NCBI GenBank assembly: GCA_040756015.1
Contig: JBFMAC010000004.1
Location: 132,278 to 196,277, forward strand
Source of the DNA: Pseudomonadota bacterium
GTDB taxonomy: Bacteria > Pseudomonadota > Gammaproteobacteria > Burkholderiales > JBFMAC01
Direction of reading: 5' to 3'
Length of the DNA: 64,000 bases
The position numbers and the translations under genes are program-made. The first letter of the stretch is position 1. Every line of letters begins with the position of its first letter. Shown here piece by piece: positions 8,673-50,237 of this stretch. The notes under the pieces were generated by a model. It saw only the letters and a list, made by a program, of their open reading frames with translations, was not told the DNA's origin and searched no databases.

Positions 8673-8756
8673 CGCGGATTTTTGCGTCGGCCATCCGGAC
8701 TATCCTTACGCCAACAAGTCGGCTTGCAAGGACTGGTCCGCAGGTTGTGGCAAAAA

Positions 8757-8786
8757 GAAAAGGGGCGCATGAGTGCGCCCCTTTTG
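8757..8786 (-). terminator. Rho-independent terminator of the aminotransferase gene
   Basis: GGGGCGCA-TGAG-TGCGCCCC flanked by an A-run and a T-run. On the minus strand the hairpin is followed by TTTTCTTTTT, 20 nt after the stop. Confidence 0.8.
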
Positions 8787-8806
8787 CATGGGTGCAGCAG
8801 CCTGGG

Positions 8807-10000: not shown

Positions 10001-10045
10001 GGTTTTTCCTTTAGAACAAATGCGGCGCGGGAGGCGCTACGACGT

Positions 10046-10351
10046 TTACGGTTGGGGTTGAAAAAGCCGCCATTTTACCCGCGATTGCGGCAATTCCCAA
10101 TATCCCCGGCAGGGGTGCGCTTCCAGTTTTGGATAGGGTGGGGTAGGGGTATGTGGCCACTGCATTCGCGCCCGGATAGGATCGCCGACGAGCACGGCCG
10201 CCAGATACAACGCTTCTTCCTCCGTCTGCGCATGCAATGCCAATTGTTCGGTCAGCCGTCCATACTTCGTTGCATGCTCGGTATGAGCCGCAAGGCGGAG
10301 TTTTTCAACAGTCGCGCGAATGGCCTTGTGTTCCCCGATCATTCTGGGCAC
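10046..10351 (-). pseudogene. Hemerythrin-like (HHE cation-binding) domain fragment, probably N-terminally truncated
   Basis: MIGEHKAIRATVEKL...LALHAQTEEEALYLAAVL resembles the second half of hemerythrin-like proteins. The upstream frame has no ATG before a stop. The tail runs into the aspC promoter region. Confidence 0.3.
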
Positions 10352-10475
10352 TGCGATTTCGCGCCCCAGCCTAGGGCTTGAGGGTGTTTGGCGCTGGCGG
10401 TACCCACGTTTGCCTGTGTCTTCGTGCTTGGCTGTTTGGCAAACGCTACATTAGCCGTACAATGTCCGGCTTACC

Positions 10476-35281: not shown

Positions 35282-37462
35282 ATGAGCGACATCGCCACCC
35301 TTCCCGCAGCCAGCCAGATCCCGCCGCCCGAACGGTTGGCGGCGCTCGTCGCACGTTACGCACCCGGCGAGGCGGAAACGGTGCGCACCGCCTGGAGTCG
35401 TGCCGCAACCGTTTACGGGCAGCAGCGACTAGGCAGCGGCGAGCCGGCGCTGGCGCATGCCGTCGAGGTTGCCCTGCTGCTCGATGCGATGCGCATGGAT
35501 CACGAAACCGTGTCTGCCGCGCTGCTGGCGCACGTGCCCGATTTTGCGCCGGACAGCATGGAATGGCTGAGACTGCATTGCGGCGCGGCGGTCGCGCAAC
35601 TGGTCGAAGGGCTGGGGCGTATGGCGCAGATCCAGGCGCTGTCCGGCGCGCCGCGCGCGGCGGAAGACCAGCACGCGCAGCTGGAGGCGTTGCGCAAGAT
35701 GCTGCTCGCCATGGTGCAGGACATCCGCGTGGTGCTGATCAAGCTCGCCGACCAAGTGCAGACGCTGCGCTTCGTGGTGGGCGCGGCGGACGAGGTATTG
35801 CGCCGGCAGACGGCACGCGAAACGCTGGACCTGTTCGCACCGCTCGCCAACCGGCTCGGTGCCTGGCAGTTCAAGTGGGAGCTGGAGGATTTGTCGCTGC
35901 GCATCCTCGAGCCGGAAATCTACCAGCGCATCGCGCGCCTGCTCGACGAGAAGCGCGGCCAGCGCGAGCGCTACATCGGTGACGTGATCGCGCTGCTGCG
36001 CCGGGAAATGCAGCAAGCCGGCATCAATGCCGAAGTGAGCGGGCGTCCCAAACACATCTACAGCATCTATAAAAAAATGCGGCGCAAGGACGTCGACTTC
36101 ACCGAGCTGTACGACGTGCGCGCGGTGCGTGTGCTGGTCGGCGACGTGAAGGACTGCTACGCCGCGCTTGGCGTGGTGCACAACCTGTGGACGCCCATCC
36201 CCAGGGAATTCGACGACTATATCGCCAAGCCAAAGGCCAACAACTACCGTTCCCTGCACACCGCGGTGATCGGGCCGGAGGGTAAGGCGCTGGAAGTGCA
36301 GATCCGCACCCACGACATGCACCGCGAATCCGAATTGGGCGTGGCGGCGCACTGGCGCTACAAGGAAGGTGGCAGGGGCGATGCCCGGTTCGACGACCGC
36401 ATCGCCTGGCTGCGCCAGCTGCTGGCGTGGAAGGACGAGGTGCCGGATGCCGGCGAGCTGGCGCAGCGCTTCAAGACCGGGCTGTTCGAGGACACCATCT
36501 ATGTGTTGACGCCGCAGGGCCGCGTGGTGGCGCTGCCCAAGGATGCCACGCCGGTGGATTTCGCCTACCATGTGCACACCGACCTCGGCCACCGCTGCCG
36601 TGGCGCCAAGGTGGATGGTGTCATGGTGCCGCTCAATTCCGCCCTGCACAACGGCGAGCGCGTGGAAATCAGCGCGGCCAAGCAGGGCGGTCCGAGTCGC
36701 GACTGGCTCAACCCGGAGCTGGGCTACCTGAAAAGCCACCGCGCGCGCGCCAAGGTGCGGCAGTGGTTCAATAGCCAGCAACTAGAGGAGGCGCTGGCGC
36801 AGGGGCGCACCATCGTCGAGCGCGAATTGCAGCGCGCCGGCATGACCGCATTCGGCCTCGACAGGCTCGCCGCTCTACTGCATTTCGCCAAACCCGATGA
36901 ATTACTCGCCGCGGCGGGACGCGGCGAAATCACGCCGCGACAGATACAGGACGCACTGCGTGCCGAAAGCGTGCCGGCAGAGCGGCCGTCCGGCATGCCA
37001 TTGGTGCGCAAGGCTGGCGCTGCCCCCGCTTCCGGCGGCGTGCTGGTGGTGGGAGTGGACAAGCTGATGACGGTGCTGGCCAAGTGCTGCAAGCCGGCGC
37101 CGCCCGATTCCATCATCGGCTTCGTTACGCGTGGGCGCGGGGTGACGGTGCACCGGCGCAGTTGCTCCAACGTCGCGCACTTGCCGCAGGAGCGTCTGAT
37201 CTCCGCCGATTGGGGCACGGCTGCCGAGCGCAGGTTTTCGGTGGACATCGAAGTCGAGGCGCATGATCGCCAGGGCTTGCTGCGCGACATTTCCGAAGTG
37301 CTGTCGCGCGAGAAAATCAACGTCACTTCCGCCAACACGCAAAGCCGTGGTGACATCGCACGCATGTCGTTCACGCTGGAGGTGGGCGACGTGACGCAAT
37401 TGGGGCACGTGCTGACGCTGCTCGGGGAGGTGCAGGGAGTGCTGGGAGCGAGGCGCAAATAA
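35282..37462 (+). CDS. relA: GTP pyrophosphokinase, (p)ppGpp synthetase I
   Basis: RelA/SpoT synthetase motifs (GRPKHIYSIYKKM, YRSLHT). TGS and ACT domains. The hydrolase HD motif is degenerate (ALLAHV), which supports RelA over SpoT. Confidence 0.9.
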   Translation: MSDIATLPAASQIPPPERLAALVARYAPGEAETVRTAWSRAATVYGQQRLGSGEPALAHAVEVALLLDAMRMDHETVSAALLAHVPDFAPDSMEWLRLHCGAAVAQLVEGLGRMAQIQALSGAPRAAEDQHAQLEALRKMLLAMVQDIRVVLIKLADQVQTLRFVVGAADEVLRRQTARETLDLFAPLANRLGAWQFKWELEDLSLRILEPEIYQRIARLLDEKRGQRERYIGDVIALLRREMQQAGINAEVSGRPKHIYSIYKKMRRKDVDFTELYDVRAVRVLVGDVKDCYAALGVVHNLWTPIPREFDDYIAKPKANNYRSLHTAVIGPEGKALEVQIRTHDMHRESELGVAAHWRYKEGGRGDARFDDRIAWLRQLLAWKDEVPDAGELAQRFKTGLFEDTIYVLTPQGRVVALPKDATPVDFAYHVHTDLGHRCRGAKVDGVMVPLNSALHNGERVEISAAKQGGPSRDWLNPELGYLKSHRARAKVRQWFNSQQLEEALAQGRTIVERELQRAGMTAFGLDRLAALLHFAKPDELLAAAGRGEITPRQIQDALRAESVPAERPSGMPLVRKAGAAPASGGVLVVGVDKLMTVLAKCCKPAPPDSIIGFVTRGRGVTVHRRSCSNVAHLPQERLISADWGTAAERRFSVDIEVEAHDRQGLLRDISEVLSREKINVTSANTQSRGDIARMSFTLEVGDVTQLGHVLTLLGEVQGVLGARRK

Positions 37463-37550: not shown

Positions 37551-40109
37551 ATGAAGCGGGGCGCATTCTGGAAGTCCGAGTGGCTCATCGGCTTGGGGCT
37601 GGCTTTGCTGATGCTGCTTGTGGCGGGTGGCGACCTGATGCAGAGCCTGGAGCGCAAGGCCTACGACCTCGGCGTGCTGGCCTCCAGCCGAACCCCCAGC
37701 GATCGCGTCGCCGTGATCGCCATCGACGACCAGAGTATCTCCAACATCGGCCGCTGGCCGTGGTCGCGCGAGGTACACGCCAAAATGATCGACCTCCTCG
37801 CGGGAGCGCAGGCCAAGGTGGTCGGCAACACCGTGTTTTTCTCCGAGCCTCAGTCCGACGCCGGACTCGCCTACATCAACAAACTCAACAAATTTTTCTC
37901 CGCGTCCCGGTTCAGGAACGCAATTGATCCGGCATTGCAGCAGGAGGCCGTGCAGCTTGCCGGTATGTTGCAGGAGGCCGAGCAAGACTTGAACGCCGAC
38001 CGCAAGCTGGCGCAAAGCATTGCCCAGGCCGGCAACGTGGTGCTGGCGATGGCGTTCCAGTTGGGCGAGCCGCGCGGCAATCCGGATCACCCCCTGCCCG
38101 ACTACCTGACGAAAAACGCGCTGCCCAATGTCGTCGATGCGGGGGGCGCGGCGGAGATGGGGCTGCTGCCGCTGTCCACGCTGTCGGCGGTGGTGCCGAT
38201 CGCTGAGCTTGGCATGCAGGCGGCTGCCATCGGCTACCTCAACCTGACTCCCGACCACGATGGCGGGGTGCGCTCCGAGCCCCTCGTGCTGCGCCATTAC
38301 GACCACTATTACCCGTCGCTGCCCTTGCTGCTGGCGGCGAAGAGCCTCAACCTGCAAGCTGCCGATGTCCAGGTGGTGCTGGGCGAGGGCGTAAGTCTGG
38401 GCAAGCTGCATATCGCCACCGATCCCGAATTGCGCATGAACACGTTTTTCTACAGGGACGCGGAGCGGCCGGCGTTCCAGGTGGATTCGTTTTACGACGT
38501 CTATAGCGGCAAAATTCCCGTGAGCAAATACGCCGGCAAGATTGTGCTGATCGGCGCCACCGCGCAGGGCGTGGGCGCGCCGCAGGTGACGCCAGTGTCA
38601 CCTGCGATGGCGCCGGTGCTGGTGCTGGCGCATTCGGTGTCGAGCATTCTGCAGGAGGACTTTTTCGTCGTGCCAGGCTGGGGTGTGTGGGCGGAGAAAG
38701 GCGTGTTCCTGCTTGTCGCGCTGTACCTGATGCTGGCGTTGCCGCGCCTCAAGGCAGGGCTGGCGGCGCTGTTTACCGCGCTGCTGTTCGTTGCCCTGCT
38801 GATCGCGCATTTCGCGCTGATGGTGGGGCAGTCGATGTGGCTGCAACTGATGACGCCGGCGGCGCTGTTGCTGATTGGCCATCTGCTGCTCACCACCAAG
38901 CGCTTCCTGGTGACCGAGCGCGGCAAGGAAAAATCCGAGGCAGAGTCGGCCGAGTCGAACCGCATGCTGGGCCTGGCGTTCCAGGGGCAGGGCCAGCTCG
39001 ATATGGCGTTCGACAAATTCCGCAAGCTGCCGATGGACGACGGTGTGATGGATCTTCTCTACAACCTGGCGCTCGATTTCGAGCGCAAGCGCCAGTTCAA
39101 CAAGGCCGAGGCGGTGTACCAGCACATGGCCGCCTACAACGCGAAATTCCGTGACCTCGAACAGAAGCTCAGCCGCGCCAAGGCGATGTCGGAAACCGTG
39201 ATCCTGGGCGGCGGCAGCGCCAGCGCGGCGATCAGTGGTACCGTGCTGATGGCGGGCGGTGGCGTGGAAAAGCCGATGCTGGGCCGCTACCAGGTGGAGA
39301 AGGAACTGGGTAAGGGCGCCATGGGTGTGGTCTACATGGGGCGCGACCCTAAGATCGGTCGCGTGGTGGCGATCAAGACAATGGCGTTGTCTCAGGAGTT
39401 CGAGGAAGACGAGTTGCAGGAGGTCAAGGAGCGTTTTTTCCGCGAGGCGGAAACGGCGGGACGGCTCAGCCATCCCAACATCGTCACCATCTATGATGCC
39501 GGCGAGGAGCACGACCTTGCCTATATCGCCATGGAACTGCTGAAAGGCAAGGACCTGGTACCCTATACCAAGCCAGATAACCTGTTGCCGCTGCCGAAAG
39601 TGCTGTCCGTCATCGCGCGCGTGGCCGATGCGCTGGGCTATGCGCATGCGCAGCATGTGGTGCATCGCGACATCAAGCCGGCTAATATTATGTATGAGCC
39701 GGAAGACGACATGGTAAAGGTGACCGATTTCGGCATCGCGCGCATCACCGATTCGAGCAAGACCAAGACCGGTATGGTGCTGGGCACGCCGTCGTACATG
39801 TCGCCGGAGCAGTTGGCGGGCAAGAAGATCGACGGGCATTCCGACCTCTTTTCGCTTGGGGTGACCTTGTACCAGTTGTGTTGCGGGCAACTGCCTTTTC
39901 AGGGTGACTCGATGGCGCAACTGATGTACAAGATCGCCAACGACCCGCCGCTGGATATCCGTACCCTGCGTCCCGATCTGCCGGTTGGCGTGGTGTTGGT
40001 GATCGCCAGGGCGATCGCCAAGCAGCCGGAGGCGCGTTACCAGACCGGCGAGGAAATGGCGCAGGCAATCCGCCAGTGTGCGGCGGCGATCAGCAACGAA
40101 GGAGCATGA
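37551..40109 (+). CDS. CHASE2-sensor transmembrane Ser/Thr protein kinase
   Basis: N-terminal CHASE2 (VAVIAIDDQSISNIGRWPWSR). TM cluster and TPR-like linker. Hanks kinase motifs GKGAMGVV, VAIK, HRDIKPAN, DFGIA, SPE. Confidence 0.9.
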   Translation: MKRGAFWKSEWLIGLGLALLMLLVAGGDLMQSLERKAYDLGVLASSRTPSDRVAVIAIDDQSISNIGRWPWSREVHAKMIDLLAGAQAKVVGNTVFFSEPQSDAGLAYINKLNKFFSASRFRNAIDPALQQEAVQLAGMLQEAEQDLNADRKLAQSIAQAGNVVLAMAFQLGEPRGNPDHPLPDYLTKNALPNVVDAGGAAEMGLLPLSTLSAVVPIAELGMQAAAIGYLNLTPDHDGGVRSEPLVLRHYDHYYPSLPLLLAAKSLNLQAADVQVVLGEGVSLGKLHIATDPELRMNTFFYRDAERPAFQVDSFYDVYSGKIPVSKYAGKIVLIGATAQGVGAPQVTPVSPAMAPVLVLAHSVSSILQEDFFVVPGWGVWAEKGVFLLVALYLMLALPRLKAGLAALFTALLFVALLIAHFALMVGQSMWLQLMTPAALLLIGHLLLTTKRFLVTERGKEKSEAESAESNRMLGLAFQGQGQLDMAFDKFRKLPMDDGVMDLLYNLALDFERKRQFNKAEAVYQHMAAYNAKFRDLEQKLSRAKAMSETVILGGGSASAAISGTVLMAGGGVEKPMLGRYQVEKELGKGAMGVVYMGRDPKIGRVVAIKTMALSQEFEEDELQEVKERFFREAETAGRLSHPNIVTIYDAGEEHDLAYIAMELLKGKDLVPYTKPDNLLPLPKVLSVIARVADALGYAHAQHVVHRDIKPANIMYEPEDDMVKVTDFGIARITDSSKTKTGMVLGTPSYMSPEQLAGKKIDGHSDLFSLGVTLYQLCCGQLPFQGDSMAQLMYKIANDPPLDIRTLRPDLPVGVVLVIARAIAKQPEARYQTGEEMAQAIRQCAAAISNEGA

Positions 40110-40933
40110 TGAGTTTGGTGAAGGTGTTGGAAATGGCAAGCGCGACCGATCCCGGCCTGGTGCGTTCGCATAACGAGGACAGCATTGCGGTCGATGCCGA
40201 CATCGGACTGGCGGTGCTGGCCGATGGCATGGGCGGTTACAACGCCGGCGAGGTGGCGAGTGGCATCGCGGTGTCGCTGATCATGAGCGAAATGCAACAG
40301 GCGCTGCCGTCGGTCGATCCGCACGCAGCGGGCGGCGTCAGCGGCGAGACCATCGGTGAGGTGCTGCTGCGTGACAAGATCGGGCGTGCCAATGCCTCGA
40401 TCTTCCAGGCTGCGATCAGCCAGCCGCAGTATGCCGGCATGGGCACCACGCTGGTGGCGGCGCTGTTTTACGATAACCGCGTCAGTGTCGGCCACATCGG
40501 CGATTCGCGCATGTACCGACTGCGCGCCGGGCAGTTCGAGCAGATCACGCGCGACCACTCGCTGTTACAGGAGCAGATCGACAGCGGCATGATCAGCAAG
40601 GAGATGGCGCGGCTGTCGCAGAACAAGAACCTGGTGACGCGCGCGGTGGGCATCGACCCCGACGTCGAGGCGGAAATCCATACGCATGCCGTGCAGGCGG
40701 GCGACATCTACCTGATTTGCTCCGACGGTCTCAACGACATGGTCGAGGACGAGGAGATCGGCGCCACGCTGGGCATGCTGGAAGCGAACCTGCCGCTGGC
40801 GGCGACACAGCTGGTGCAGATGGCCAACGACAACGGCGGGCGCGACAACATTTCAGTGATTCTGATAAAGGTGTTGAGCGAGTTTCCGGCGCAGGGTGGT
40901 TGGTTCGCAAAATTCCTATCGTGGTTTAAATAA
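40106..40933 (+). CDS. PP2C-family Ser/Thr phosphatase
   Basis: RSHNEDS, LADGMGG, GDSRMY and CSDGL motifs. ATGA overlap with the kinase stop. Confidence 0.9.
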   Translation: MMSLVKVLEMASATDPGLVRSHNEDSIAVDADIGLAVLADGMGGYNAGEVASGIAVSLIMSEMQQALPSVDPHAAGGVSGETIGEVLLRDKIGRANASIFQAAISQPQYAGMGTTLVAALFYDNRVSVGHIGDSRMYRLRAGQFEQITRDHSLLQEQIDSGMISKEMARLSQNKNLVTRAVGIDPDVEAEIHTHAVQAGDIYLICSDGLNDMVEDEEIGATLGMLEANLPLAATQLVQMANDNGGRDNISVILIKVLSEFPAQGGWFAKFLSWFK

Positions 40934-40945
40934 CGAGGTATTGCC

Positions 40946-41686
40946 ATGGCAAAGTTGATACTCAGTCTGGACGGTGCGGTGTTGCGCGAGATCGTGCTCA
41001 ACAAGGAGCGCACTACCATAGGCCGCAAGGAGCACAATGACGTCGTCATCGACAACCTGGCGGTGAGCGGCGATCACGCGCAGATCGTCAGCATCCTCAA
41101 CGACTCGTTCCTGGAAGACCTCGACAGCACCAACGGCACGCTGGTCAACGGCAACCCGATCAAGAAGCATTTCCTGCAGAACGGCGACGTTATCGAGATC
41201 GGCAAGTACAAGCTCAAGTATCTCAACGAAGGCGCGGCTGCCGGCCATGCGGCGGAAGAGTTCGAGAAGACCATGATCCTGCGGCCGTCCGCGCACACGC
41301 CTGCTGCGCCCGCGCCCAATCGTACCGGCGACGACACCCTGGTGAATACGCCGGCCTACTCGCCCGGGCGCGAAGAGGAAATGACCGCCAAGGTGGCGGC
41401 CATGCCGGCGGGCCATCTGCCGGTGGCCACGATCCAGTTGCTGAGCGGCCCGAATGCCGGCAGGGAACTGGAACTGGCCAAGACCCTGGTGACCATCGGA
41501 AAGCCGGGGGTGCAGGTGGCGGTGATCGCGCGCCGGCCGCACGGCTATTTCATCACCCATGTCGAAGGCGCTAATTTCCCGGTGCTGAACGGCAAGGTGC
41601 TTGATGCCCAGGCGCACCCGCTCAACGACCACGACGTGATCGAGCTGGCCGGCGTGAAAATGGAATTTTTCTTTAAAAGCGAGTAG
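40946..41686 (+). CDS. FHA-domain protein (canonical N-terminal FHA plus degenerate C-terminal FHA-like domain)
   Basis: TIGRKEHNDVVIDNLAVSGDHAQI...STNGTLVNG at the N-terminus. A Pro/Ala linker, then a second TIGKPG...VLNGKV module. Confidence 0.85.
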   Translation: MAKLILSLDGAVLREIVLNKERTTIGRKEHNDVVIDNLAVSGDHAQIVSILNDSFLEDLDSTNGTLVNGNPIKKHFLQNGDVIEIGKYKLKYLNEGAAAGHAAEEFEKTMILRPSAHTPAAPAPNRTGDDTLVNTPAYSPGREEEMTAKVAAMPAGHLPVATIQLLSGPNAGRELELAKTLVTIGKPGVQVAVIARRPHGYFITHVEGANFPVLNGKVLDAQAHPLNDHDVIELAGVKMEFFFKSE

Positions 41687-41726: not shown

Positions 41727-43967
41727 ATGGAGAGACTCAAACAGAGTTGGGTGCGTATCGTTTTCGGGGTACTGCTCGTCCTGGTGTTTCTCGGCAACGC
41801 GATACACTTTTATTCCATCCCCTTCATCCAGCAGATCGAAGCGATCATTTACGATGCGCGCCTGCGCCTGACTATGTCGCGCAGCGTCGACGAGCGCATT
41901 GTCATCCTCGACATCGATGAGAAGAGCCTGGCCGCAGAGGGCCACTGGCCGTGGCCGCGCAACCGCATGGCCAGCCTGGTCGACAAGCTGTTCGACCGCT
42001 ACGGCATCGCCGTGCTCGGCTTTGACGTGGTGTGGGCGGAGAAGGACGAAAGCTCCGGCCTCAAGGTGCTAGACCAGCTTGCCGCGCGCGAACTGAAAGG
42101 CGATGGCGCCTACCAGGCGGTGTTGGCGCAGATACGTCCCAAGCTCGACTATGACGAATTGTTCGCCAGGTCGATCAAGGGCAGACGCGTGGTGCTGGGG
42201 TACTTCTTCTCCGGCGCGCTCGGCGACCAGGAGGCCACCACCACCGGCATGCTGCCCAAGCCGGCGCTGGTCGCCGGTACCTTCCAGGGCAGGAACATCC
42301 CCTTCATCGCCGCCACCGGCTACAGCGCCAACCTGCCGGTGTTGCAACAAAGCGCGGCGGGCGGGGGACATTTCACCCAGTTGCCGGACATCGATGGCGT
42401 GACCCGGCGCGTGCCGATGCTGATGGAGTACAAGGGCGCTTATTACGAAACCCTGTCGCTGGCGATGATGCGCGCCATGCTGGATTTCCCCGAGGTCGTT
42501 CCCGGCTATCCCGACGACGTATGGAGCAAAAGCTATCCGGGGCTGGAGTGGATCGAAGTGGGCGGCATGAAGATACCGGTGGACGAGAATGCACGTGCAT
42601 TGATTCCCTATCGCGGTCGCGCGGGCAGCTTCAAATACGTCTCCATCACCGATGTACTGCATGATCGCGTGCCGGCGGCGAGCCTCAAGGATAAGATCGT
42701 GATACTCGGCACCACCGCGCCGGGCCTGCTCGACTTGCGTTCCACGCCGGTGTCGCCGGTCTACCCCGGCGTCGAGGTGCACGCCAACCTGATTTCCGGC
42801 ATGCTCGACGGCGACATCAAGCAGAAACCTCCCTACGTGATGGGGGCAGAGTTCACCCTGCTGCTGGTTTCCGGCCTGCTGGTTGCGTTGCTGGTGCCGC
42901 TGCTCAGTCCGCTGCGCGCGACCCTGGTGACGCTGGCGGTGCTGGGCGCGGCGGTTGCGATCAACGTGGTGGTCTGGCATTACGGCAACCTGGTGCTGCC
43001 GTTGGCCTCCGGCTTGATGCTGATTTCGCTGATTTACGCGATGGACATGGCGTACGGCTTTTTTGTCGAGGCCCGCGCCAAGCGCCAGATCACCGGCCTG
43101 TTCGGGCAATACGTGCCGCCCGAACTGGTCGACGAGATGAGCAAGAACCCGGAGAACTTTTCGATGGCGGGTGAAAGCCGCGAAATGAGCGTGCTGTTCT
43201 CCGACGTGCGCGGTTTCACCAGCATCTCCGAGGGGCTGGACCCGAAGGAGCTGACGCAGTTGATGAACGAGTTCCTTACCCCTCTCACCAAGGTGATATA
43301 CAAGCACCGCGGTACCATCGACAAGTACATGGGCGATTGCATCATGGCGTTCTGGGGCGCCCCGCTCGACGATGCACAGCACGCGCGCCATGCCATCCTC
43401 GCCGGACTGGAGATGCAGAAGACGCTGCACGAATTGCAACCTTACTTCAAGCAGCGCGGCTGGCCGGCGATCGAGGTCGGCATAGGCGTCAACACCGGGC
43501 GCATGAGCGTGGGCAACATGGGTTCGGAGATCCGTCTGGCCTATACTGTGATGGGCGATGCGGTGAACCTCGCCTCGCGCCTGGAGGGCATCACCAAACA
43601 GTATGGCGTCGGCATGGTGGTGGGGGAGGCGACCAGGGAAAAGGTGCCGGATTTCGTGTTCCGCGAGCTGGATCGCGTGCGCGTGAAGGGCAAGGAGGCG
43701 CCGGTGGCGATCTATGAACCGCTTGGTCCTGCCGGGGAAGTTGCCCAAAGCGTGCTGGATGAGATTAAACTATTCCAGCAGGCGCTCAAATATTACCGCG
43801 CGCGGGATTGGGATCGCGCCGAGTTGCAGTTGCTCAACCTGCAAAAGACGGTGCCTGAAGGCTCGGAGTTCCATTTGTACCAGCTTTACCTTAAACGTAT
43901 TGCGCGTTACCGCGCCGAGCCGCCTGCCGGGGACTGGGACGGCGTGACGACATTCGAGACCAAGTGA
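41727..43967 (+). CDS. CHASE2-sensor class III adenylate/guanylate cyclase
   Basis: CHASE2 (IVILDIDEKSLAAEGHWPWPR) and TM cluster. Cyclase motifs VLFSDVRGFT, IDKYMGDCIMAFWG, MGDAVNLASRLE. Confidence 0.9.
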   Translation: MERLKQSWVRIVFGVLLVLVFLGNAIHFYSIPFIQQIEAIIYDARLRLTMSRSVDERIVILDIDEKSLAAEGHWPWPRNRMASLVDKLFDRYGIAVLGFDVVWAEKDESSGLKVLDQLAARELKGDGAYQAVLAQIRPKLDYDELFARSIKGRRVVLGYFFSGALGDQEATTTGMLPKPALVAGTFQGRNIPFIAATGYSANLPVLQQSAAGGGHFTQLPDIDGVTRRVPMLMEYKGAYYETLSLAMMRAMLDFPEVVPGYPDDVWSKSYPGLEWIEVGGMKIPVDENARALIPYRGRAGSFKYVSITDVLHDRVPAASLKDKIVILGTTAPGLLDLRSTPVSPVYPGVEVHANLISGMLDGDIKQKPPYVMGAEFTLLLVSGLLVALLVPLLSPLRATLVTLAVLGAAVAINVVVWHYGNLVLPLASGLMLISLIYAMDMAYGFFVEARAKRQITGLFGQYVPPELVDEMSKNPENFSMAGESREMSVLFSDVRGFTSISEGLDPKELTQLMNEFLTPLTKVIYKHRGTIDKYMGDCIMAFWGAPLDDAQHARHAILAGLEMQKTLHELQPYFKQRGWPAIEVGIGVNTGRMSVGNMGSEIRLAYTVMGDAVNLASRLEGITKQYGVGMVVGEATREKVPDFVFRELDRVRVKGKEAPVAIYEPLGPAGEVAQSVLDEIKLFQQALKYYRARDWDRAELQLLNLQKTVPEGSEFHLYQLYLKRIARYRAEPPAGDWDGVTTFETK

Positions 43968-44731
43968 TGAAACTGAGAGTGCTGGGATGCAGCGGGGGTA
44001 TAGGCGGGAAGTTGCGCACGACCTCGTTCCTGCTCGACAATGATGTGCTGATCGACGCTGGCAGTGGCGTCGGCGATTTGAGCATCGCCGAAATGGTGTT
44101 CATCGACCATATCTTCATCACCCATTCCCATCTTGACCATGTCGCCATGATTCCGCTGCTGGTGGATACCGTGGGCGGCATGCGCGACAGGCCGATCACG
44201 CTGCATGCCACGGAGGAGGTGCTGGATATCCTCAGGCAGCACATGTTCAACTGGAAGCTCTGGCCCGATTTCACCTGCATCCCCGATCCTGATCATCCAT
44301 TCCTGCGCTACCGCGCCATCGCCATGGGAGAGACAGTCACCTTGGATGGGCGCGCGATCACTGTGCTGCCCGCGGTGCACACCGTGCCGGCGGTGGGTTA
44401 CCAGATCGACAGCGGCAGCGCGAGTCTGGTGTTCACCGGCGACACCACAAGCCAGGAGGAGTTCTGGCGTATCGTCAACAGCATCGAGAACCTGCGTTAC
44501 CTGATCATCGAGACGGCCTTCTCCAACGCCGAGCGCGACCTGGCGATTGCTTCCAAGCATCTGTATCCGTTGTTGCTGGCGGAAGAGCTGGCCAAGTTCA
44601 AGCGCGAGGCGGAAATTTATATCACTCATTTGAAACCGGGCGAGATCGAACTGACGATGCAGGAAATCTACGATTGCGCGGCGCAATACCGACCGCATAT
44701 GCTTTACAACGGCAAGGTGTTCGATTTCTGA
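43964..44731 (+). CDS. Class-II 3',5'-cyclic-nucleotide phosphodiesterase (metallo-beta-lactamase fold)
   Basis: LRVLGCSGG start and THSHLDHVAMIPLL (HxHLDH signature). Start GTG 43964 or ATG 43967 overlaps the cyclase stop. Confidence 0.8.
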   Translation: MMKLRVLGCSGGIGGKLRTTSFLLDNDVLIDAGSGVGDLSIAEMVFIDHIFITHSHLDHVAMIPLLVDTVGGMRDRPITLHATEEVLDILRQHMFNWKLWPDFTCIPDPDHPFLRYRAIAMGETVTLDGRAITVLPAVHTVPAVGYQIDSGSASLVFTGDTTSQEEFWRIVNSIENLRYLIIETAFSNAERDLAIASKHLYPLLLAEELAKFKREAEIYITHLKPGEIELTMQEIYDCAAQYRPHMLYNGKVFDF

Positions 44732-44733
44732 TC

Positions 44734-45807
44734 ATGCCGCTGGATGCACAGACCTTGGCGCGGTTCGAGCCGTTTTCCTCCATGGCGGAAAAGACGGTGC
44801 GCCAGCTTGCCGCAGTGGGCGTGACGGTCAGGGCGCACCCAGGCGCCGATCCGTTTGCCGACAACGATTTCAGCCACCACTTGGTATACCTGATCCGGGG
44901 CGGGTTGCGCCTCGCTTACGGTGACAGCGAGGCCGAGGTGGTGGTGGCCGGCAGCGAGCAGGCACGCTATCCGCTGGGGCGCGACCGTCCCGGCCTGCTG
45001 GCGACACGCGCCATGGACGACGTCGAGCTCGCGCGCATGGACGAGGAGCTGGTCGAAACGGCGGTGGCGTGGGATCAGCTCACGCCGCCGGGGCAGGAAG
45101 CAGACGGCGAAGACCAGGCACGGCGCGCCGACCGCGTGGTCGACACCGGCATGTTCAGCGCGATGATGTTCAAATACGGTGTGCTGGCCATGTTGCCGCC
45201 GAAAAATGTCATCGACCTGATCGGCAAGATGCGCATGATGACGGTGCGGCGCGGCGATGTCGTCGTGCGCGAGGGAGACCCGGCCGATTGTTATTATATG
45301 ATCGAGAACGGCCAGGCACTGGTGACTCGTCAGGTTGGCGACCAGAATGTGGTGTTGGCCGAGCTGCGCAGCGGCGGGGCTTTCGGCGAGGACGCGCTGG
45401 TTTCCGGTGGTCAGCGCAACGCCACCGTGACGATGAAAAGCGACGGCATTTTGCTGACGCTGGAAAAAAGCGCCTTCCTGGATCTGATGCGCCGGCCGCT
45501 GCTCAACGAGCTGACCATGCCGGAAGCCGAGCAGCGGGTGGCAGCGGGGGCGGTGTGGCTTGACCTGCGTTACCCGCCGCAGTATCGGCGCGGCCGGCTG
45601 CCGGGGGCAGTCAACATCCCGCTCAGCGAATTGCGTACCGCGCTCAGTGTGCTCGACAAGAGCAAGGAATACGTGGTGTATTGCCATAACGGACGCAGCG
45701 GTGCCATTGCCGCTTTCGTCATGTCGGAGAACGGTTTCAAGGCTTATACCTTGAAGAACGGTTGGCAGCCGGAAGCGGCACCAATATCGCGCGAGGGATC
45801 GCTATGA
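44734..45807 (+). CDS. Tandem cyclic-nucleotide-binding domains fused to a rhodanese domain
   Basis: The second CNB has GDPADCYYMIENG...GGAFGEDALVSGGQRNATV (phosphate-binding-cassette-like). C-terminal rhodanese with VVYCHNGRSG. Start is 2 nt after the PDE stop. Confidence 0.8.
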   Translation: MPLDAQTLARFEPFSSMAEKTVRQLAAVGVTVRAHPGADPFADNDFSHHLVYLIRGGLRLAYGDSEAEVVVAGSEQARYPLGRDRPGLLATRAMDDVELARMDEELVETAVAWDQLTPPGQEADGEDQARRADRVVDTGMFSAMMFKYGVLAMLPPKNVIDLIGKMRMMTVRRGDVVVREGDPADCYYMIENGQALVTRQVGDQNVVLAELRSGGAFGEDALVSGGQRNATVTMKSDGILLTLEKSAFLDLMRRPLLNELTMPEAEQRVAAGAVWLDLRYPPQYRRGRLPGAVNIPLSELRTALSVLDKSKEYVVYCHNGRSGAIAAFVMSENGFKAYTLKNGWQPEAAPISREGSL

Positions 45808-48179
45808 ACACGATGTTCCAGAACAAGCCGGGCACGCAGGATAACCTGGCGGAGCGCCTGGGGTTTTCCAAGCAGTTGCAGGCGGTGACCAACAAGATCC
45901 ACTCCACCAGCAACATCGACGAGATCATGCTGGAAGTGAGCCAGGATATCTGCCAGTTGTTCAATGCCGACCGCCTGACCATCTATGCAGTGGCGGAGGA
46001 CAGATCGGCCATCGTTTCCAAGGTCAAGACCGGGCTCAATTCGTTCAAGGACCTGAAGCTGCCGATCAACGAGCAGAGCGTTGCCGGCTATGTCGCAGTG
46101 AACAAGGTGCCGGTCAACATCAAGGACGTTTACGACGATGTTGAGCTGCACTCGTTGAGTCCGCACCTGCATTTCCTGCAGGAAGTGGATCGCCGCACCG
46201 GTTACCGTACCAAGCAGATGCTGGTGGCGCCGGTGGTGGAATCGGCCAGCGGCGAACTGCTCGGCGTGGTGCAACTGATCAACAGCCGTACCGGGCAGCC
46301 GTTCCCGCAGATCGCGGAGGAGGGCGTGGGCACACTGGCCGAGACGCTGGCGATTGCCTTCAAGCAGCGGCAACGGATGAGCGGCACCTTGCGCGGCAAG
46401 TATGACGCGCTGGTGGCGAATGCGGTACTGTCGGCGGAGGAGCTGGAACTGGCCACGCGCTCGGCGCGGCGCAAGGGGATCAACATCGAGGACGTGCTGA
46501 TCGATGAATTCCAGGTCAAGGTCGGTGCCATCGGCGAGGCGCTGGCGGCCTTTTTCCAGGTGCCTTACGAGGGTTACCGCGCCGACCGCATCAAGCCGGT
46601 AGACCTGTTGAAGAACCTGAAGCGAGAATACGTGGAAAGCAGCGCTTGGTTGCCGGTGGACGACACCAAGGAGGGGCTGATCATCCTTACCACCGACCCG
46701 GAGCGGGTCAAGAGTTCGCGCATCGTCAACAACGTTTTCCCGAAAAGCAGGCTGGTCTACAAGGTCTGCACCCACCGGGAGTTCGTCAGCACGCTCGATT
46801 TGTTCTACGGTGGCGAGGCCACCATGGACGCCACTTCGATCGGCGATCTGCTGTCTACCATGAGCGATGAGGAATCCGAGGAGGCGATTGGTTCCAGCGA
46901 CGATATCTCCGCAGCCGCCGACAACGAACTGGTGAAGCTGGTCAACAAGATCATCGTCGATGCATATCACCAGGGTGCCTCGGACATCCATATCGAACCT
47001 TACCCGGGCAAATCCAAGACGGAAATCCGCTTCCGCAAGGACGGTACGCTGATGCCTTATATTTCCGTGCCGCCTTCCTATCGCAATGCGATTGCGGCGC
47101 GTATCAAGATCATGTGCGACCTGGACATCTCGGAAAAGCGCAAGCCGCAGGACGGCAAGATCAAGTTCAAGAAATTTGGCCCGCTCGACATCGAACTGCG
47201 TGTGGCGACCATACCATCGCAAGGCGGCGTCGAGGACATCGTGATGCGTATCCTCGCCGCCGGCGAGCCGATCCCGCTCGACAAGCTCGGCCTGAGCGAA
47301 TACAACCTGAAGACGGTGAAGGAAATCATCAGCAAGCCTTACGGCCTGTTTTTCGTGTGCGGCCCGACCGGTTCCGGCAAGACCACCACGCTGCACTCGG
47401 TGTTGGGGTATATCAATACACCGGAAACCAAGATATGGACAGCCGAAGACCCGGTTGAAATCACGCAGAAAGGCTTGCGCCAGGTGCAGATGAACCCCAA
47501 GGCGGGGCTGACCTTTGCGGTGGCAATGCGATCCTTTCTGCGTGCCGACCCGGACGTGATCATGGTGGGCGAGATGCGCGACAAGGAAACCACCGCAATC
47601 GGCATCGAAGCGTCGCTGACCGGCCACCTGGTGTTTGCCACCCTGCATACCAACAGCGCGCCGGAGTCCATCATCCGCCTGCTCGACATGGGTATGGACC
47701 CTTTCAACTTTGCTGACGCCATGCTGGGCATCCTGGCGCAGCGGCTGGCGAAGCGCCTGTGCGGCAAGTGCAAGCGGCCCTATCATCCCAGCGAGGATGA
47801 AATCCGTCTGCTGCTGGAGGAATATACCTTGGAGTTGCAGCACACCGCCAAGTGGAAAAAGGACCCGCAAGCGGCTTCCCAGGAAATTCTCGACGAATGG
47901 AAGAAGGGTTTCGGGGGGGGGGATGGGCAGTTCACGCTGTACCAGCCGGTGGGCTGCGAGGTGTGCAACAACACCGGCTACAAGGGGCGCGTCGGCCTGC
48001 ATGAATTACTGGTCGGCACCGATGCCGTCAAGAAGAACATCCAGGAACATGCGCGCGTGGCGGAGGTGCTGGCGACCGCGCTGGAAGACGGCATGCGGAC
48101 CCTGAAGCAGGATGGCATCGAAAAGGTGCTGTCGGGGATCACCGACATGAAGCAAGTGCGCGCAGTGTGCATCAAATAA
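45804..48179 (+). CDS. GAF + T2SSE_N + GspE/PilB-type hexameric secretion ATPase (orphan)
   Basis: 791 aa. N-terminal GAF (aa ~25-185), T2SSE_N-like region. Walker A GPTGSGKTT, Asp box EDPVE, Walker B VIMVGEMRD, His box GHLVFATLHTN. Tetracysteine CGKC...CEVC. ATGA overlap with the upstream gene. Confidence 0.9.
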   Translation: MNTMFQNKPGTQDNLAERLGFSKQLQAVTNKIHSTSNIDEIMLEVSQDICQLFNADRLTIYAVAEDRSAIVSKVKTGLNSFKDLKLPINEQSVAGYVAVNKVPVNIKDVYDDVELHSLSPHLHFLQEVDRRTGYRTKQMLVAPVVESASGELLGVVQLINSRTGQPFPQIAEEGVGTLAETLAIAFKQRQRMSGTLRGKYDALVANAVLSAEELELATRSARRKGINIEDVLIDEFQVKVGAIGEALAAFFQVPYEGYRADRIKPVDLLKNLKREYVESSAWLPVDDTKEGLIILTTDPERVKSSRIVNNVFPKSRLVYKVCTHREFVSTLDLFYGGEATMDATSIGDLLSTMSDEESEEAIGSSDDISAAADNELVKLVNKIIVDAYHQGASDIHIEPYPGKSKTEIRFRKDGTLMPYISVPPSYRNAIAARIKIMCDLDISEKRKPQDGKIKFKKFGPLDIELRVATIPSQGGVEDIVMRILAAGEPIPLDKLGLSEYNLKTVKEIISKPYGLFFVCGPTGSGKTTTLHSVLGYINTPETKIWTAEDPVEITQKGLRQVQMNPKAGLTFAVAMRSFLRADPDVIMVGEMRDKETTAIGIEASLTGHLVFATLHTNSAPESIIRLLDMGMDPFNFADAMLGILAQRLAKRLCGKCKRPYHPSEDEIRLLLEEYTLELQHTAKWKKDPQAASQEILDEWKKGFGGGDGQFTLYQPVGCEVCNNTGYKGRVGLHELLVGTDAVKKNIQEHARVAEVLATALEDGMRTLKQDGIEKVLSGITDMKQVRAVCIK
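47913..47922 (+). repeat. G10 homopolymer inside the GAF-GspE ATPase CDS
   Basis: GGGGGGGGGG encoding GGG(D). It is the longest mononucleotide run I noticed in the window. Confidence 0.9.
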
Positions 48180-48199
48180 TGCCGGCGGGGAGGTAAGCA

Positions 48200-49807
48200 A
48201 TGACCTTGCCCAATGCCGCTGATCTGCTGCGGCGGCTGGAGGAACTGAACCGTATCGGGGTGTCACTCTCCAAGGAGAAGGACATCGACCGTCTGCTGGA
48301 AGCCATCCTGCTCGCCGCCAAGACCATAGCTGGCGCGGATGGCGGCACGCTCTACCGCGTCCAAGACGGCAAGCTGCATTTTAAGATACTGCGCAACGAT
48401 ACCCTCAACATCGCCATGGGTGGTACCACCGGGGTGCCGATTCCCTTCGAACCGTTATCCATGTATGACGAGCAGGGCAGGCCGAACAATTCTATGGTGG
48501 TGGCCCATGCCGTGCTGCACGACGTCACCGTGAACATACCGGATGCGTATAGCGCGGAAGGCTTCGATTTTTCCGGCACGCGCCAGTTCGACAAGAAGAC
48601 CGGTTACCGCTCACAGTCGTTCCTGACCGTGCCGATGAAGGATCACGAGGAACAGATCATCGGCGTGCTGCAACTGATCAATGCCAAGCACCCCGTGAGC
48701 GGGGAAATCGTGCCGTTTGCCGAGGCAGACCAGCGCCTTGCCGAATCGCTGGCGTCGCAGGCCGCCATTGCGCTGACCAACCGCATGCTGATCAACCAGC
48801 TGGAAGTCCTGTTCGAATCTTTCATCAATTTGATCAACGCCGCGATCGACGACAAGTCGCCCTATACCGGCGGGCACTGCGCACGCGTGCCGGTGCTGAC
48901 CATGATGCTGGCCGAGGCGGTGAATAAAACTTCCGTCGGCCCGCTCAGGGATTTCCGCATGAGCGCGGCGGACTTTTATGAACTGAAGATCGCCGGCCTG
49001 TTGCACGATTGCGGCAAAGTGACCACGCCGGTGCATGTGGTGGACAAGGCGACCAAGCTGCAAACCATCTACGACCGCATCCACCTGATCGACACCCGCT
49101 TCGAGGTGGTCAAGCGCGACGCCGAGATAGCCATGCTGCGCAACGAGGCGGCCGATGGCGAAGGATCGCGTCGGCGCTGCCGTGAGGTGATGGAGCAGAT
49201 CAGCAGCGACCGCGAGTTCCTGCGCGCTTGCAACATAGGCAGTGAAAAAATGGACGAGGATGAGGTGCAGCGCGTCCACACTATTGCTGGGCGCTACCGT
49301 TGGCGCAATGAACGCGGCGAAGAAGTGCCTTTCCTCAGCGAAGACGAGGTGAAGAACCTAACCATTCGCAGCGGCACGCTCACGCCCGAGGAACGGCAGA
49401 TCATCAACCATCACATCGATGTGACCATCCAGATGCTGGAGGCGCTGCCCTGGCCAAAGCACCTGAAGAACGTGCCGGAATATGCCGGCGGTCATCACGA
49501 GCGCATGGACGGCAAAGGCTATCCGCGCGGGCTCACGCGCGAGCAGATGTCGGTGCAGGCGCGCATCATGGGTATCGCCGATATTTTTGAGGCGCTGACC
49601 GCACGTGACCGCCCATACAAGAAGGGCAAGACCCTCACCGAGGCGCTGCACATCCTCGGTAAATTCAAGCTGAACGGCCATATCGACCCCGACCTCTTCG
49701 ATGTACTCATCCGCGAAAAAGTCTACTTGAACTATGGCCACCACTTCCTGGAAGCGGAACAGGTGGATGAGGTCGACGAGCGCGCGATCCCCGGTTATGT
49801 GCCGTGA
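48200..49807 (+). CDS. GAF-domain HD-GYP phosphohydrolase (putative c-di-GMP phosphodiesterase)
   Basis: N-terminal GAF (TGYRSQSFLTVPM...IGVLQLINA). HD (LLHDCGK) and GGHHERMDGKGYP motifs. Confidence 0.9.
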   Translation: MTLPNAADLLRRLEELNRIGVSLSKEKDIDRLLEAILLAAKTIAGADGGTLYRVQDGKLHFKILRNDTLNIAMGGTTGVPIPFEPLSMYDEQGRPNNSMVVAHAVLHDVTVNIPDAYSAEGFDFSGTRQFDKKTGYRSQSFLTVPMKDHEEQIIGVLQLINAKHPVSGEIVPFAEADQRLAESLASQAAIALTNRMLINQLEVLFESFINLINAAIDDKSPYTGGHCARVPVLTMMLAEAVNKTSVGPLRDFRMSAADFYELKIAGLLHDCGKVTTPVHVVDKATKLQTIYDRIHLIDTRFEVVKRDAEIAMLRNEAADGEGSRRRCREVMEQISSDREFLRACNIGSEKMDEDEVQRVHTIAGRYRWRNERGEEVPFLSEDEVKNLTIRSGTLTPEERQIINHHIDVTIQMLEALPWPKHLKNVPEYAGGHHERMDGKGYPRGLTREQMSVQARIMGIADIFEALTARDRPYKKGKTLTEALHILGKFKLNGHIDPDLFDVLIREKVYLNYGHHFLEAEQVDEVDERAIPGYVP

Positions 49808-49819
49808 TCCCGGCTGTGC

Positions 49820-50146
49820 TTAATGCGCCAATGCCCACTCCACCAGGGTGTGGATGTCGGCTTCGTTGACGCGGCCCTTGTGCGGCGGCATGGCGACCTT
49901 GCCCCAGTTGCCGGAGCCGCCTTCCGTTACTTTCTTGGCCAGCGCTGCCGGCGCATCCTGGTTGCCCTTGTATTTTTGTGCGATCTCCTGGAACGAGGGT
50001 CCGAGGATTTTTTTGCTTTCGTCGTGGCAGTTCAGGCAGCCGCTTTTCCGCGCCAGCTTGAGGCCGGCTTCCATGTCTACCGCCGCGTGAACCTGGCTTG
50101 CAAACAGCAGGGCTGCGAAGGCAGCCGTCATCATCGAAGTTTTCAT
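49820..50146 (-). CDS. Periplasmic class I c-type cytochrome (c551/c552-like)
   Basis: Signal peptide MKTSMMTAAFAALLFASQVHA. Haem motif CLNCH. Distal Met in GKVAMPPH. Confidence 0.85.
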   Translation of the reverse strand: MKTSMMTAAFAALLFASQVHAAVDMEAGLKLARKSGCLNCHDESKKILGPSFQEIAQKYKGNQDAPAALAKKVTEGGSGNWGKVAMPPHKGRVNEADIHTLVEWALAH

Positions 50147-50237
50147 GTCGTCCTCCTTATTGTTGATTGGATAGTCCGTCATTATTTCCTACACCAGGGT
50201 AGGTGCAAGTAAAATGCACCAAATGCTCGTTGTGCGT

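Follow-up and report, generated by a model that had tools for sequence, protein, structure and literature searches.

Neighboring GAF domains of a PilB-like ATPase and an HD-GYP protein: probable members of two sublineages of the cyclic-mononucleotide-binding type

Two adjacent genes with GAF domains

In a 64,000-nucleotide stretch of the genome of a Burkholderiales bacterium (assembly GCA_040756015.1, contig JBFMAC010000004.1, positions 132,278 to 196,277; here called the window), two adjacent genes encode proteins in which a GAF domain is joined to two different outputs, an ATPase of the PilB/GspE kind in one and an HD-GYP domain in the other. They close a cluster of genes, all on one strand from a Ser/Thr kinase gene through the HD-GYP gene, that includes a predicted adenylate cyclase and a phosphodiesterase (PDE) resembling class II cyclic AMP (cAMP) phosphodiesterases. 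A preliminary description of this DNA had proposed that the two GAF domains belong to the same sequence subtype, implying one shared ligand. We favor, with moderate confidence, the reading that both GAF domains are of the type that binds cyclic nucleoside monophosphates (cNMPs), that they represent different sublineages of that type, and that they serve a cAMP operon acting on the HD-GYP protein and the ATPase. The features of the two genes are as follows.

45804 to 48179, + strand: GAF-ATPase gene, encoding a PilB/GspE-like protein of 791 amino acids (aa) with a GAF domain, a degenerate MshEN/N1E domain, and a T2SSE ATPase domain (Pfam)
45915 to 46358, + strand: GAF1, the GAF domain of the ATPase (Pfam PF01590)
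46185 to 46289, + strand: the block shared with GAF2, as it stands in GAF1, VDRRTGYRTKQMLVAPVVESASGELLGVVQLINSR (translation)
46554 to 46820, + strand: MshEN-like (N1E) domain (Pfam MshEN, 28.5 bits, just over the cut-off)
46917 to 48158, + strand: T2SSE ATPase core (Pfam PF00437, 387 bits, E = 6.6e-116)
48200 to 49807, + strand: GAF–HD-GYP gene, encoding a predicted phosphodiesterase of 535 aa with PmGH-type architecture (Pfam GAF, HD, HD_5)
48281 to 48775, + strand: GAF2, the GAF domain of the HD-GYP protein (Pfam PF01590)
48587 to 48688, + strand: the shared block as it stands in GAF2, FDKKTGYRSQSFLTVPMKDHEEQIIGVLQLINAK (translation)

The ATPase gene was taken to start at the ATG at 45804, which forms the overlap ATGA with the stop codon of the gene before it, and the HD-GYP gene begins 20 nucleotides past the ATPase stop codon, preceded by a GGGGAGG Shine-Dalgarno sequence. 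The NCBI product names are generic (“ATPase, T2SS/T4P/T4SS family” and “HD domain-containing phosphohydrolase”). With a Pfam cut-off of 22.4 bits, GAF1 scored 46.1 bits (residues 52 to 199 of the open reading frame [ORF]) and GAF2 scored 53.4 bits (residues 28 to 192). The two peptides quoted in the preliminary description proved to be exact translations of the block coordinates listed above, and alignment of the two GAF domains bore out the statement that they sit at equivalent positions in the two proteins. GAF1 and GAF2 are 31% identical over 106 aa (45 bits, E = 6e-9, BLASTP), and the two families of orthologues align by profile-profile comparison with hhalign at 98.5% probability (E = 3e-15, 25% identity over 172 columns). 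Their homology is well above chance, as is expected of two GAF domains.

Relationships of the two GAF domains

We used phmmer, with the same settings throughout (Z = 1.84e9), to score GAF1 and GAF2 against each other and against solved cNMP-binding GAF domains. GAF1 scored highest with GAF-B of CyaB2 from Anabaena (57.1 bits), followed by CyaB2 GAF-A (43.0), PDE5 GAF-A (35.5), and PDE2 GAF-B (34.9), and reached 28.5 bits with its neighbor GAF2, which corresponds to an E value of 0.13 on the scale of 1.84 billion proteins. GAF2 scored highest with PDE5 GAF-A (43.5 bits), and its scores with PDE2 GAF-B, CyaB2 GAF-B, and GAF1 were 30.0, 29.9, and 28.0 bits, respectively. The two neighbors are thus not a private subtype, each being nearer to characterized cNMP GAFs than to the other. 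A recent duplication of a GAF domain within the operon was considered and rejected on the same ground.

A search of 1.84 billion cluster representatives with GAF1 returned 4300 at E <= 0.001, 1065 of them at E <= 1e-10, a list outside which GAF2 (E = 0.13) would fall. Those of the best 150 GAF1 relatives that were at least 330 aa long were mostly GAF–MshEN–T2SSE or GAF–GAF–MshEN–T2SSE ATPases, the remainder being multi-GAF proteins with Sel1, Mrr, AAA_35, PAS, or class-I PDE domains, and there was no HD-GYP protein among these best 150 of the 4300 matches. A collection of 5.8 billion proteins was also searched with each GAF, and the family alignments A1 (ATPase) and A2 (HD-GYP) were built from it; none of the 120 matches listed per GAF was a relative with the other architecture, all being fragmentary orthologues with 64 to 75% identity. 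Many ATPase relatives (P0241, P0242, P0254, P0262, P0283, P0362, and others) have two or three tandem GAF1-like domains before MshEN–T2SSE, and other close GAF1 relatives are proteins of up to 2922 aa with several GAF domains, joined to Sel1, Mrr_cat, AAA_35, PAS, or a class-I cNMP phosphodiesterase domain.

These relationships are best explained if GAF1 and GAF2 belong to the same cNMP-type clade, which includes the GAFs of PDE2/5/6/10, CyaB1/2, Lcd1, and Tlr0485, but to two different sublineages of it. Of the proposed common subtype, one recognizable broad class (the cNMP type) remains, whereas a single subtype does not, since each domain has higher phmmer scores with characterized cNMP GAFs. 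Within the cNMP-type clade, the two domains resemble each other no more closely than they resemble other members, although they do resemble each other more closely than GAFs at large.

That the block TGYR[TS]..L..P..GV.QLIN is specific to this pair, as had been implied, was not borne out. Of its 13 shared identities, 11 are also found in CyaB2 GAF-B and 11 in PDE5 GAF-A. The block of GAF1 aligns to D356 and N359 of CyaB2 and to I266, L267, Q283, I285, and N286 of PDE5, N286 being a position of the NKFDE motif that falls within the shared block. The motif TG[YF][RK]T is missing from the aligned segments of PDE5 GAF-B and PDE2 GAF-A, neither of which is known to bind cNMP. The block is best explained as the core of the clade, made up of pocket-lining strands and a loop together with remnants of the NKFDE motif, and it reads as a signature of cNMP-binding GAFs of the PDE/CyaB type. 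What two neighbors had in common was thus the signature of a large clade, so the motif does not show a special kinship between them.

Comparison with solved structures gave a consistent picture. In the Protein Data Bank (PDB), the A1 family profile matched CyaB2 with an E value of 4e-32 and PDE2, PDE6, and PDE10 with E values of about 1e-13, and the A2 profile matched PDE5 at 2e-25, PmGH at 1e-20, and CyaB2 at 1e-14. Against the cNMP GAFs as a whole (CyaB2, PDE2, PDE5, PDE6, and PDE10), the E values of the two profiles ran from 1e-9 to 4e-32, whereas the matches to the GAFs of DevS (heme), cyanobacteriochromes (CBCR; bilin), PtsP, and NifA were marginal (0.009 to 0.4). AlphaFold2 models of GAF1 (pLDDT 80.5) and GAF2 (pLDDT 91.1) both have the GAF fold and end in a long helix (residues 169 to 207 and 175 to 211, respectively), and their Foldseek matches were GAF domains only. 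The top matches were PDE5A, PmGH, CyaB2, PDE2A, PDE10A, and cAMP-bound Lcd1 for GAF1 and PmGH, PDE5A, CyaB2, PDE2A, PDE10A, and cAMP-bound Lcd1 for GAF2. For both domains and both profiles, all of the strong matches to solved structures were cNMP-binding GAFs (CyaB2, PDE2/5/6/10, and Lcd1), together with the GAF of the HD-GYP protein PmGH. Because 11 of the 13 block identities recur in CyaB2 or PDE5 and the strong matches are of the cNMP type only, the class of the ligand is readable from the sequence, and it is predicted to be a cyclic mononucleotide for both domains. The preliminary description had held that the ligand cannot be read in this way, which for the class of ligand was too cautious; its suggestion that a cyclic nucleotide is the obvious candidate gains from the sequence, profile, and fold matches to cNMP GAFs, and cAMP is favored.

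GAF ligands are diverse, and the two domains might instead sense GDP (as DcpA does), heme or a gas (DosS), or a metabolite (NifA, PtsP), in which case the cyclase neighborhood would be coincidental. PtsP and phytochrome GAFs were in fact also among the Foldseek matches, with E values only slightly weaker. By sequence, however, heme, bilin, and PtsP GAFs lie at E values of 0.01 to 0.5 and cNMP GAFs at 1e-12 to 1e-32, and the synteny with cyclase and PDE genes is kept across betaproteobacterial families (see below). We therefore regard a ligand of another kind as very improbable.

Conserved pocket residues and the choice of nucleotide

We compared 14 pocket positions in a multiple alignment of 81 ATPase and 71 HD-GYP orthologues, within which the background identity is about 65 to 75%. 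The NKFDE motif has been described as distinguishing cNMP-binding GAFs; it makes no contact with the ligand yet is required for binding in PDE2 and PDE5. The earlier report that the classical motif is not seen was correct in the strict sense (N-K-x(n)-F-x3-D-E, not complete), and each family keeps three of the five positions. The ATPase family has N in 81/81, F in 81/81, and E in 68/81 orthologues; A, V, or M replaces the Asp, and the Lys is shifted by one residue (most orthologues read “INNK”). The HD-GYP family has N in 71/71, F in 71/71, and D in 67/71, with Ala in place of the Lys and Gln in place of the Glu.

The residues of CyaB2 GAF-B that contact cAMP are R291, T293, I308, D356, and N359, the last two through water (PMC4411481), and I266, Q283, and I285 of PDE5 lie in the cyclic GMP (cGMP) site. 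Taken in that order, the equivalents in the ATPase family are R, T, V, D, T, M, Q, and I, each in at least 76 of the 81 orthologues, and those in the HD-GYP family are G/A, T, I, D, T, F, Q, and I. The equivalent of T293 is Thr in 79/81 ATPase and 71/71 HD-GYP orthologues, and that of D356 is Asp in all members of both families (81/81 and 71/71). At the N359 position both families have Thr (81/81 and 60/71), a residue also present there in CyaB2 GAF-A, PDE5, and PDE2. Also conserved in both families are Gln, Ile, and Asn at PDE5 positions 283, 285, and 286, as well as Leu 267 and Phe 295, which are reported to be invariant in human cNMP-binding PDE GAFs.

For PDE2A, we take the pocket residues to be S424, F438, D439, I458, A459, Y481, D485, T488, T492, and E512, their residue identity alone having been checked against the 1mc0 sequence. 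The positions on the ribose/phosphate side are common to the two families, and those on the base side differ. Six of the 14 positions are fixed differently:

CyaB2 R291 column: Arg in 81/81 ATPase orthologues; Gly or Ala in 71/71 HD-GYP orthologues
PDE2A F438 column: Lys in 81/81 ATPase orthologues; Leu, Val, or Met in HD-GYP orthologues
PDE2A D439 column: Thr in 78/81 ATPase orthologues; Arg in 57/71 HD-GYP orthologues
PDE2A Y481 column: Leu in 79/81 ATPase orthologues; Thr in 68/71 HD-GYP orthologues
PDE2A T492 column: Thr in 75/81 ATPase orthologues; Ser in 71/71 HD-GYP orthologues
PDE5 I266 column: Met in 76/81 ATPase orthologues; Phe in 70/71 HD-GYP orthologues

Each pocket is under strong purifying selection, for its own geometry. 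Because six positions are fixed differently, the same ligand is not implied, nor is identical specificity established, and the step from similarity to one ligand is not supported, for this reason and because both domains score higher elsewhere. The similarity of GAF1 and GAF2 adds no evidence for a single shared ligand. Such a ligand is nevertheless plausible; the pattern of pocket residues fits either a single ligand that each domain reads in its own way or a difference in selectivity between them.

CyaB2 (PDB 1YKD), the best solved relative of GAF1, with its tandem cAMP-binding GAFs, has in common with GAF1 the segments ADR-x-T, D-x-x-T/N-G-Y-R-T, and GV-x-Q-L-[IV]-N, and its cAMP-contacting residues R291, T293, and D356 are identical in GAF1. 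The ATPase differs from CyaB2 in having a PilB-like output rather than a cyclase, a single GAF rather than a tandem pair, and an incomplete NKFDE motif with a displaced Lys and a lost Asp. PDE5A GAF-A, the best solved relative of GAF2, has in common with it the block TGY[RK][TS]-x-S-[IF]-L-x-x-P-[IM]-K-[ND]-H and the N..F..D of NKFDE. PDE5A GAF-A and PDE2A GAF-B are cGMP-binding GAFs of mammalian phosphodiesterases, whereas GAF2 belongs to a bacterial protein with an HD-GYP output, has Gly or Ala in place of the Arg of ADR and the Lys-to-Ala and Glu-to-Gln changes in NKFDE, and carries an extra beta2-beta3 insertion.

Both GAFs might bind a cyclic mononucleotide and yet differ in its identity or in selectivity, for example, with cAMP bound by the ATPase GAF, much as in CyaB2, and cGMP, or either nucleotide, by the HD-GYP GAF. 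GAF1 is closest to the GAFs of CyaB2, which bind cAMP, and keeps the equivalents of Arg291 and Thr293, which contact the adenine; GAF2 stands nearest to GAF-A of PDE5, a cGMP-binding domain, with Gly or Ala for the Arg in every orthologue. The columns of PDE2A F438 and D439, residues that influence the choice between cGMP and cAMP, differ between the families and are fixed within each. Isolated CyaB2 GAF-B binds both cAMP and cGMP (PMC4411481), which indicates that selectivity in the cNMP-GAF clade is subtle. On the other hand, the sole cyclase of the conserved cluster has the signature of an adenylate cyclase, the characterized GAF–HD-GYP protein Tlr0485 responds to cAMP, and, since Arg also occupies the 291 column in PDE5 GAF-A, this residue is no simple discriminator of cAMP and cGMP. 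We consider such a difference in nucleotide or in selectivity unlikely.

Another possibility is that at least one of the two GAFs has no small-molecule ligand and serves for dimerization or as a scaffold, much as PDE2 GAF-A and PDE5 GAF-B have structural roles, possibly pairing the ATPase with the HD-GYP protein. GAF domains commonly dimerize, no ligand is known for the GAF of PmGH, and the NKFDE motif is incomplete in both families, the Lys-Asp pair being missing from that of the ATPase. A scaffold would not readily account, however, for pocket residues conserved far above the background (in the ATPase family, Arg, Lys, Asp, Thr, Gln, Asn, and Phe are each found in 81/81), nor for the retention in both families of TG[YF][RK]T, which the aligned PDE5 GAF-B and PDE2 GAF-A segments lack. 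A purely structural role for either domain is thus, in our view, distinctly improbable, and we return to the reading in which both sense a cyclic mononucleotide.

The gene cluster, its outputs, and a proposed mechanism

The genes upstream of the ATPase gene bear on which nucleotide this would be.

37551 to 41686, + strand: upstream part of the cluster (kinase, PP2C, and FHA genes; Pfam)
37551 to 40109, + strand: CHASE2–Ser/Thr kinase (Pfam)
to 40933, + strand: PP2C phosphatase (Pfam)
40946 to 41686, + strand: FHA protein (Pfam)
41727 to 43967, + strand: CHASE2–class III cyclase, predicted adenylate cyclase (Pfam CHASE2, Guanylate_cyc)
43964 to 44731, + strand: metallo-beta-lactamase (MBL)-fold phosphodiesterase resembling class II cAMP PDEs (Pfam Lactamase_B_2, PDEase_II)
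44734 to 45807, + strand: protein with a CAP-type cyclic-nucleotide-binding (CNB) domain and a rhodanese domain (Pfam cNMP_binding, 68.6 bits; Rhodanese, 53 bits)

The PDEase_II score of the MBL-fold protein is 41.7 bits, against a cut-off of 23.7 (Pfam), and the CNB–rhodanese protein has a conserved phosphate-binding cassette, FGE...RNAT. In the cyclase, the two metal-binding Asp residues, the specificity pair, and the transition-state Asn and Arg (D, K, D, T, N, and R) are kept in 59 to 60 of 60 orthologues, the specificity pair being Lys in 59/60 and Thr in 59/60, and the nearest solved structures are adenylate cyclases. In the guanylate cyclase Cya2 (2w01), Glu stands in place of the Lys that this cyclase shares with 6fht, an engineered adenylate-cyclase variant. 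The Lys/Thr pair, the intact catalytic set, and the adenylate-cyclase neighbors make cAMP the most likely nucleotide to be produced locally. The cyclase also matches the PycC models of the Pycsar system in PADLOC, with up to 109.7 bits, over the generic class III catalytic domain only, and the CNB domain, and no other part of its protein, weakly matches the PycTIR and Effector models (best effector E value 2.6e-5, marginal). A Pycsar anti-phage system was rejected, because the homology is that of a generic catalytic domain, an effector is lacking, and the cluster, syntenic across about 600 species genomes, seems to have been inherited vertically.

At least 593 species-level genomes encode the GAF-ATPase, among them those of iron oxidizers, nitrifiers, and denitrifiers. 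From these we retrieved 80 loci (ATPase identity 67 to 75% over the full length), nearly all of them labeled as Betaproteobacteria or betaproteobacterial orders, with Gallionella, Sideroxydans, Nitrosomonas, Rhodocyclaceae, and Chitinimonas among the carriers. The HD-GYP gene adjoins the ATPase gene in 71 of the 75 evaluable loci, and the MBL-fold PDE gene stands beside it in 69/80. The cyclase gene is found in 60/80 loci, and PP2C, FHA, and kinase genes in 58/80, 55/80, and 41/80, many of the absences of these last three being contig or flank ends. The CNB–rhodanese gene, found in 30/80, is an optional member of the cluster. In 40/80 loci the next one or two genes after the HD-GYP gene, on its strand, encode type IVa pilins, which would link the ATPase/HD-GYP pair to type IV pili. 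Examples, in the coordinates of the retrieved loci, are

L014, 14231 to 14701 and 14744 to 15415: type IVa pilins
L001, 14360 to 14878: type IVa pilin
L008, 14401 to 14847 and 14973 to 15419: type IVa pilins

Some loci are arranged otherwise. In three (L042 and L064, both from Noviherbaspirillum, and L070), homologues of the HD-GYP, PDE, and cyclase genes are found upstream of the ATPase gene and are transcribed divergently from it, on the other strand, and the identities are lower (59, 42, and 46%, respectively). Four (L035, L057, L060, and L068) are without an adjacent HD-GYP gene despite ample downstream sequence, and in L060 (Methylophilaceae) no cluster gene at all adjoins the GAF-ATPase gene. 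In most of the loci L001 to L080, the stretch matched by the 791-aa ATPase query in tblastn is about 3.0 kb long, not 2.4 kb. We read this as the GAF of the query aligning also to the GAF of the downstream HD-GYP gene, with the pieces joined; if so, the span would be an independent sign of conserved adjacency of the two GAF domains. At the pilin position in the window, a 120-aa ORF (49820 to 50182, - strand) was read as a c-type cytochrome by its CxxCH motif.

The HD-GYP protein has the motifs LLHDCGK and GGHHERMDGKGYP, and its HD, HHE, and GYP motifs are kept in 68 to 69 of 69 orthologues. Its best PDB match over the whole protein is PmGH (4mcw, E = 1.2e-29), followed by V-cGAP3 (5z7c). The GAF–HD-GYP architecture is already known as the named PmGH family and includes one cAMP-activated member, Tlr0485 of Thermosynechococcus, in which cAMP is required for hydrolysis of cyclic di-GMP (c-di-GMP). 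Tlr0485, likened to our protein here by description, is thus a precedent for a GAF of this kind whose binding of cAMP can switch on c-di-GMP hydrolysis. PmGH (PDB 4MCW), the top structural match of GAF2, has the same architecture as the protein in the window, which is set apart by an insertion of about 75 residues in the HD-GYP domain (the Pfam matches are split at 225-310 and 383-499) and by sharing an operon with cyclase, PDE, and GAF-ATPase genes. Crosstalk from cAMP to c-di-GMP through a GAF has a further precedent in Lcd1 of Leptospira, a GAF–GGDEF diguanylate cyclase (PDB 5W10) whose GAF binds cAMP and which is activated by it. Lcd1 is a structural match of both models, with weaker sequence similarity (E = 5e-6 for GAF1 and 0.9 for GAF2), and its effect on c-di-GMP is the opposite of that of an HD-GYP protein, synthesis rather than degradation.

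In the GAF-ATPase, as in MshE, PilB, and GspE, an N1E/MshEN-like domain precedes a T2SSE core that contains Walker A, Walker B, and His-box motifs. All 81 of 81 orthologues keep the Walker A, Asp/Walker B, and His-box motifs intact, and 41/81 show a CxxC...CxxC pattern (strict regular expression). Scores with the NCBIfam models for PilB (TIGR02538, 491.9, against a cut-off of 675.65) and GspE (TIGR02533, 453.2, against 630.25) fall below the equivalog cut-offs, which indicates a distinct paralogous family. The ATPase differs from MshE in its added N-terminal cNMP-type GAF and in the lack of the tandem 24-residue motif that binds c-di-GMP in MshEN domains, RLGxx(L/V/I)(L/V/I)xxG(L/V/I)(L/V/I)xxxxLxxxLxxQ, which was found in 0/81 orthologues with either a strict or a relaxed regular expression (PMC5013675); the corresponding region in the window reads GKYDALVANAVLSAEELELATRSA. 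Sensing of c-di-GMP through this domain, which would have tied the ATPase to the HD-GYP protein, was rejected for that reason. Supplementary Table 4 of Wang et al. (2016) includes the GAF–MshEN–T2SSE architecture, for which it names Geobacter lovleyi Glov_1971 as an example but gives no reference. That listing was all that a literature search found on a GAF–PilB or cAMP system in Betaproteobacteria, and no paper describing this betaproteobacterial operon was found. The presumably GAF-gated PilB-like ATPase, with an architecture that is catalogued but uncharacterized, is the main point of interest.

We propose that the CHASE2 cyclase would make cAMP and the MBL-fold PDE would remove it; that cAMP would bind each GAF, closing its pocket; and that the signal would run along the long C-terminal helix of the GAF to the output domain. 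In the HD-GYP protein it would switch on hydrolysis of c-di-GMP, or of a related dinucleotide, as in Tlr0485, and in the ATPase cAMP would gate a PilB-like motor that has lost the usual c-di-GMP motif of MshEN. The sequences themselves show the class of the domains, the conserved pocket residues, the adenylate-cyclase signature, the synteny, and the loss of the MshEN motif; binding of cAMP by either GAF, a nucleotide common to both, the direction in which the outputs are regulated, and the connection to type IV pili are all presumptive in this scheme. More tentatively still, we suggest that the cNMP-type GAF may functionally replace the lost MshEN site, so that a PilB-type motor would be gated directly by cAMP, with a cAMP-activated HD-GYP protein lowering c-di-GMP from the same operon, which in half of the genomes would also encode the pilin that the motor polymerizes; we put this forward as a possibility that could well prove wrong.

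Several observations weigh against the scheme. GAF1 and GAF2 are only distantly related (28 bits by phmmer), 6 of their 14 pocket positions are fixed differently, and neither family has more than three of the five NKFDE positions. The ligand of the PmGH GAF, a close relative of GAF2, was never identified. The cyclase gene is absent from the cluster in some genomes, and no pilin, pilus-platform, secretin, or secretion partner gene was found in the window, which also sets the GAF-ATPase apart from the secretion ATPases.

If this more tentative suggestion is correct, one pulse of cAMP would switch on pilus assembly posttranslationally and at the same time clear c-di-GMP, the pulse coming from a CHASE2 cyclase that is itself under the control of a Ser/Thr kinase, a PP2C phosphatase, and an FHA protein. 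Control of type IV pili by cAMP is known mainly at the level of transcription, through regulators of the Vfr/CRP type, and nucleotide control of the PilB and MshE motors themselves is known for c-di-GMP through MshEN. On the proposed scheme, the GAF-ATPase family would be a direct link from cAMP to the motor, and the adjacent GAF–HD-GYP protein would extend cAMP-to-c-di-GMP crosstalk beyond cyanobacteria and Leptospira.

Three further signaling genes lie directly upstream of the kinase gene: one for an RpfG-like REC–HD-GYP response regulator (31924 to 33021, - strand), one for a REC–SpoIIE(PP2C)–HATPase_c_2 protein (33494 to 35215, + strand), and one for a RelA/SpoT (p)ppGpp enzyme (35282 to 37462, + strand). 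They make the region dense in second-messenger genes, and none of them is kept beside the cluster in the 80 related loci. Elsewhere in the window are a 573-aa ORF without a Pfam match at E <= 1e-4 (8660 to 10381, + strand) and a 339-aa protein made up almost entirely of ankyrin repeats (62929 to 63948, - strand; Pfam Ank, 231 bits). A methyl-accepting chemotaxis protein (2319 to 3980, - strand) has HAMP and MCPsignal domains and a C-terminal PilZ domain, and this chemoreceptor may respond to c-di-GMP.

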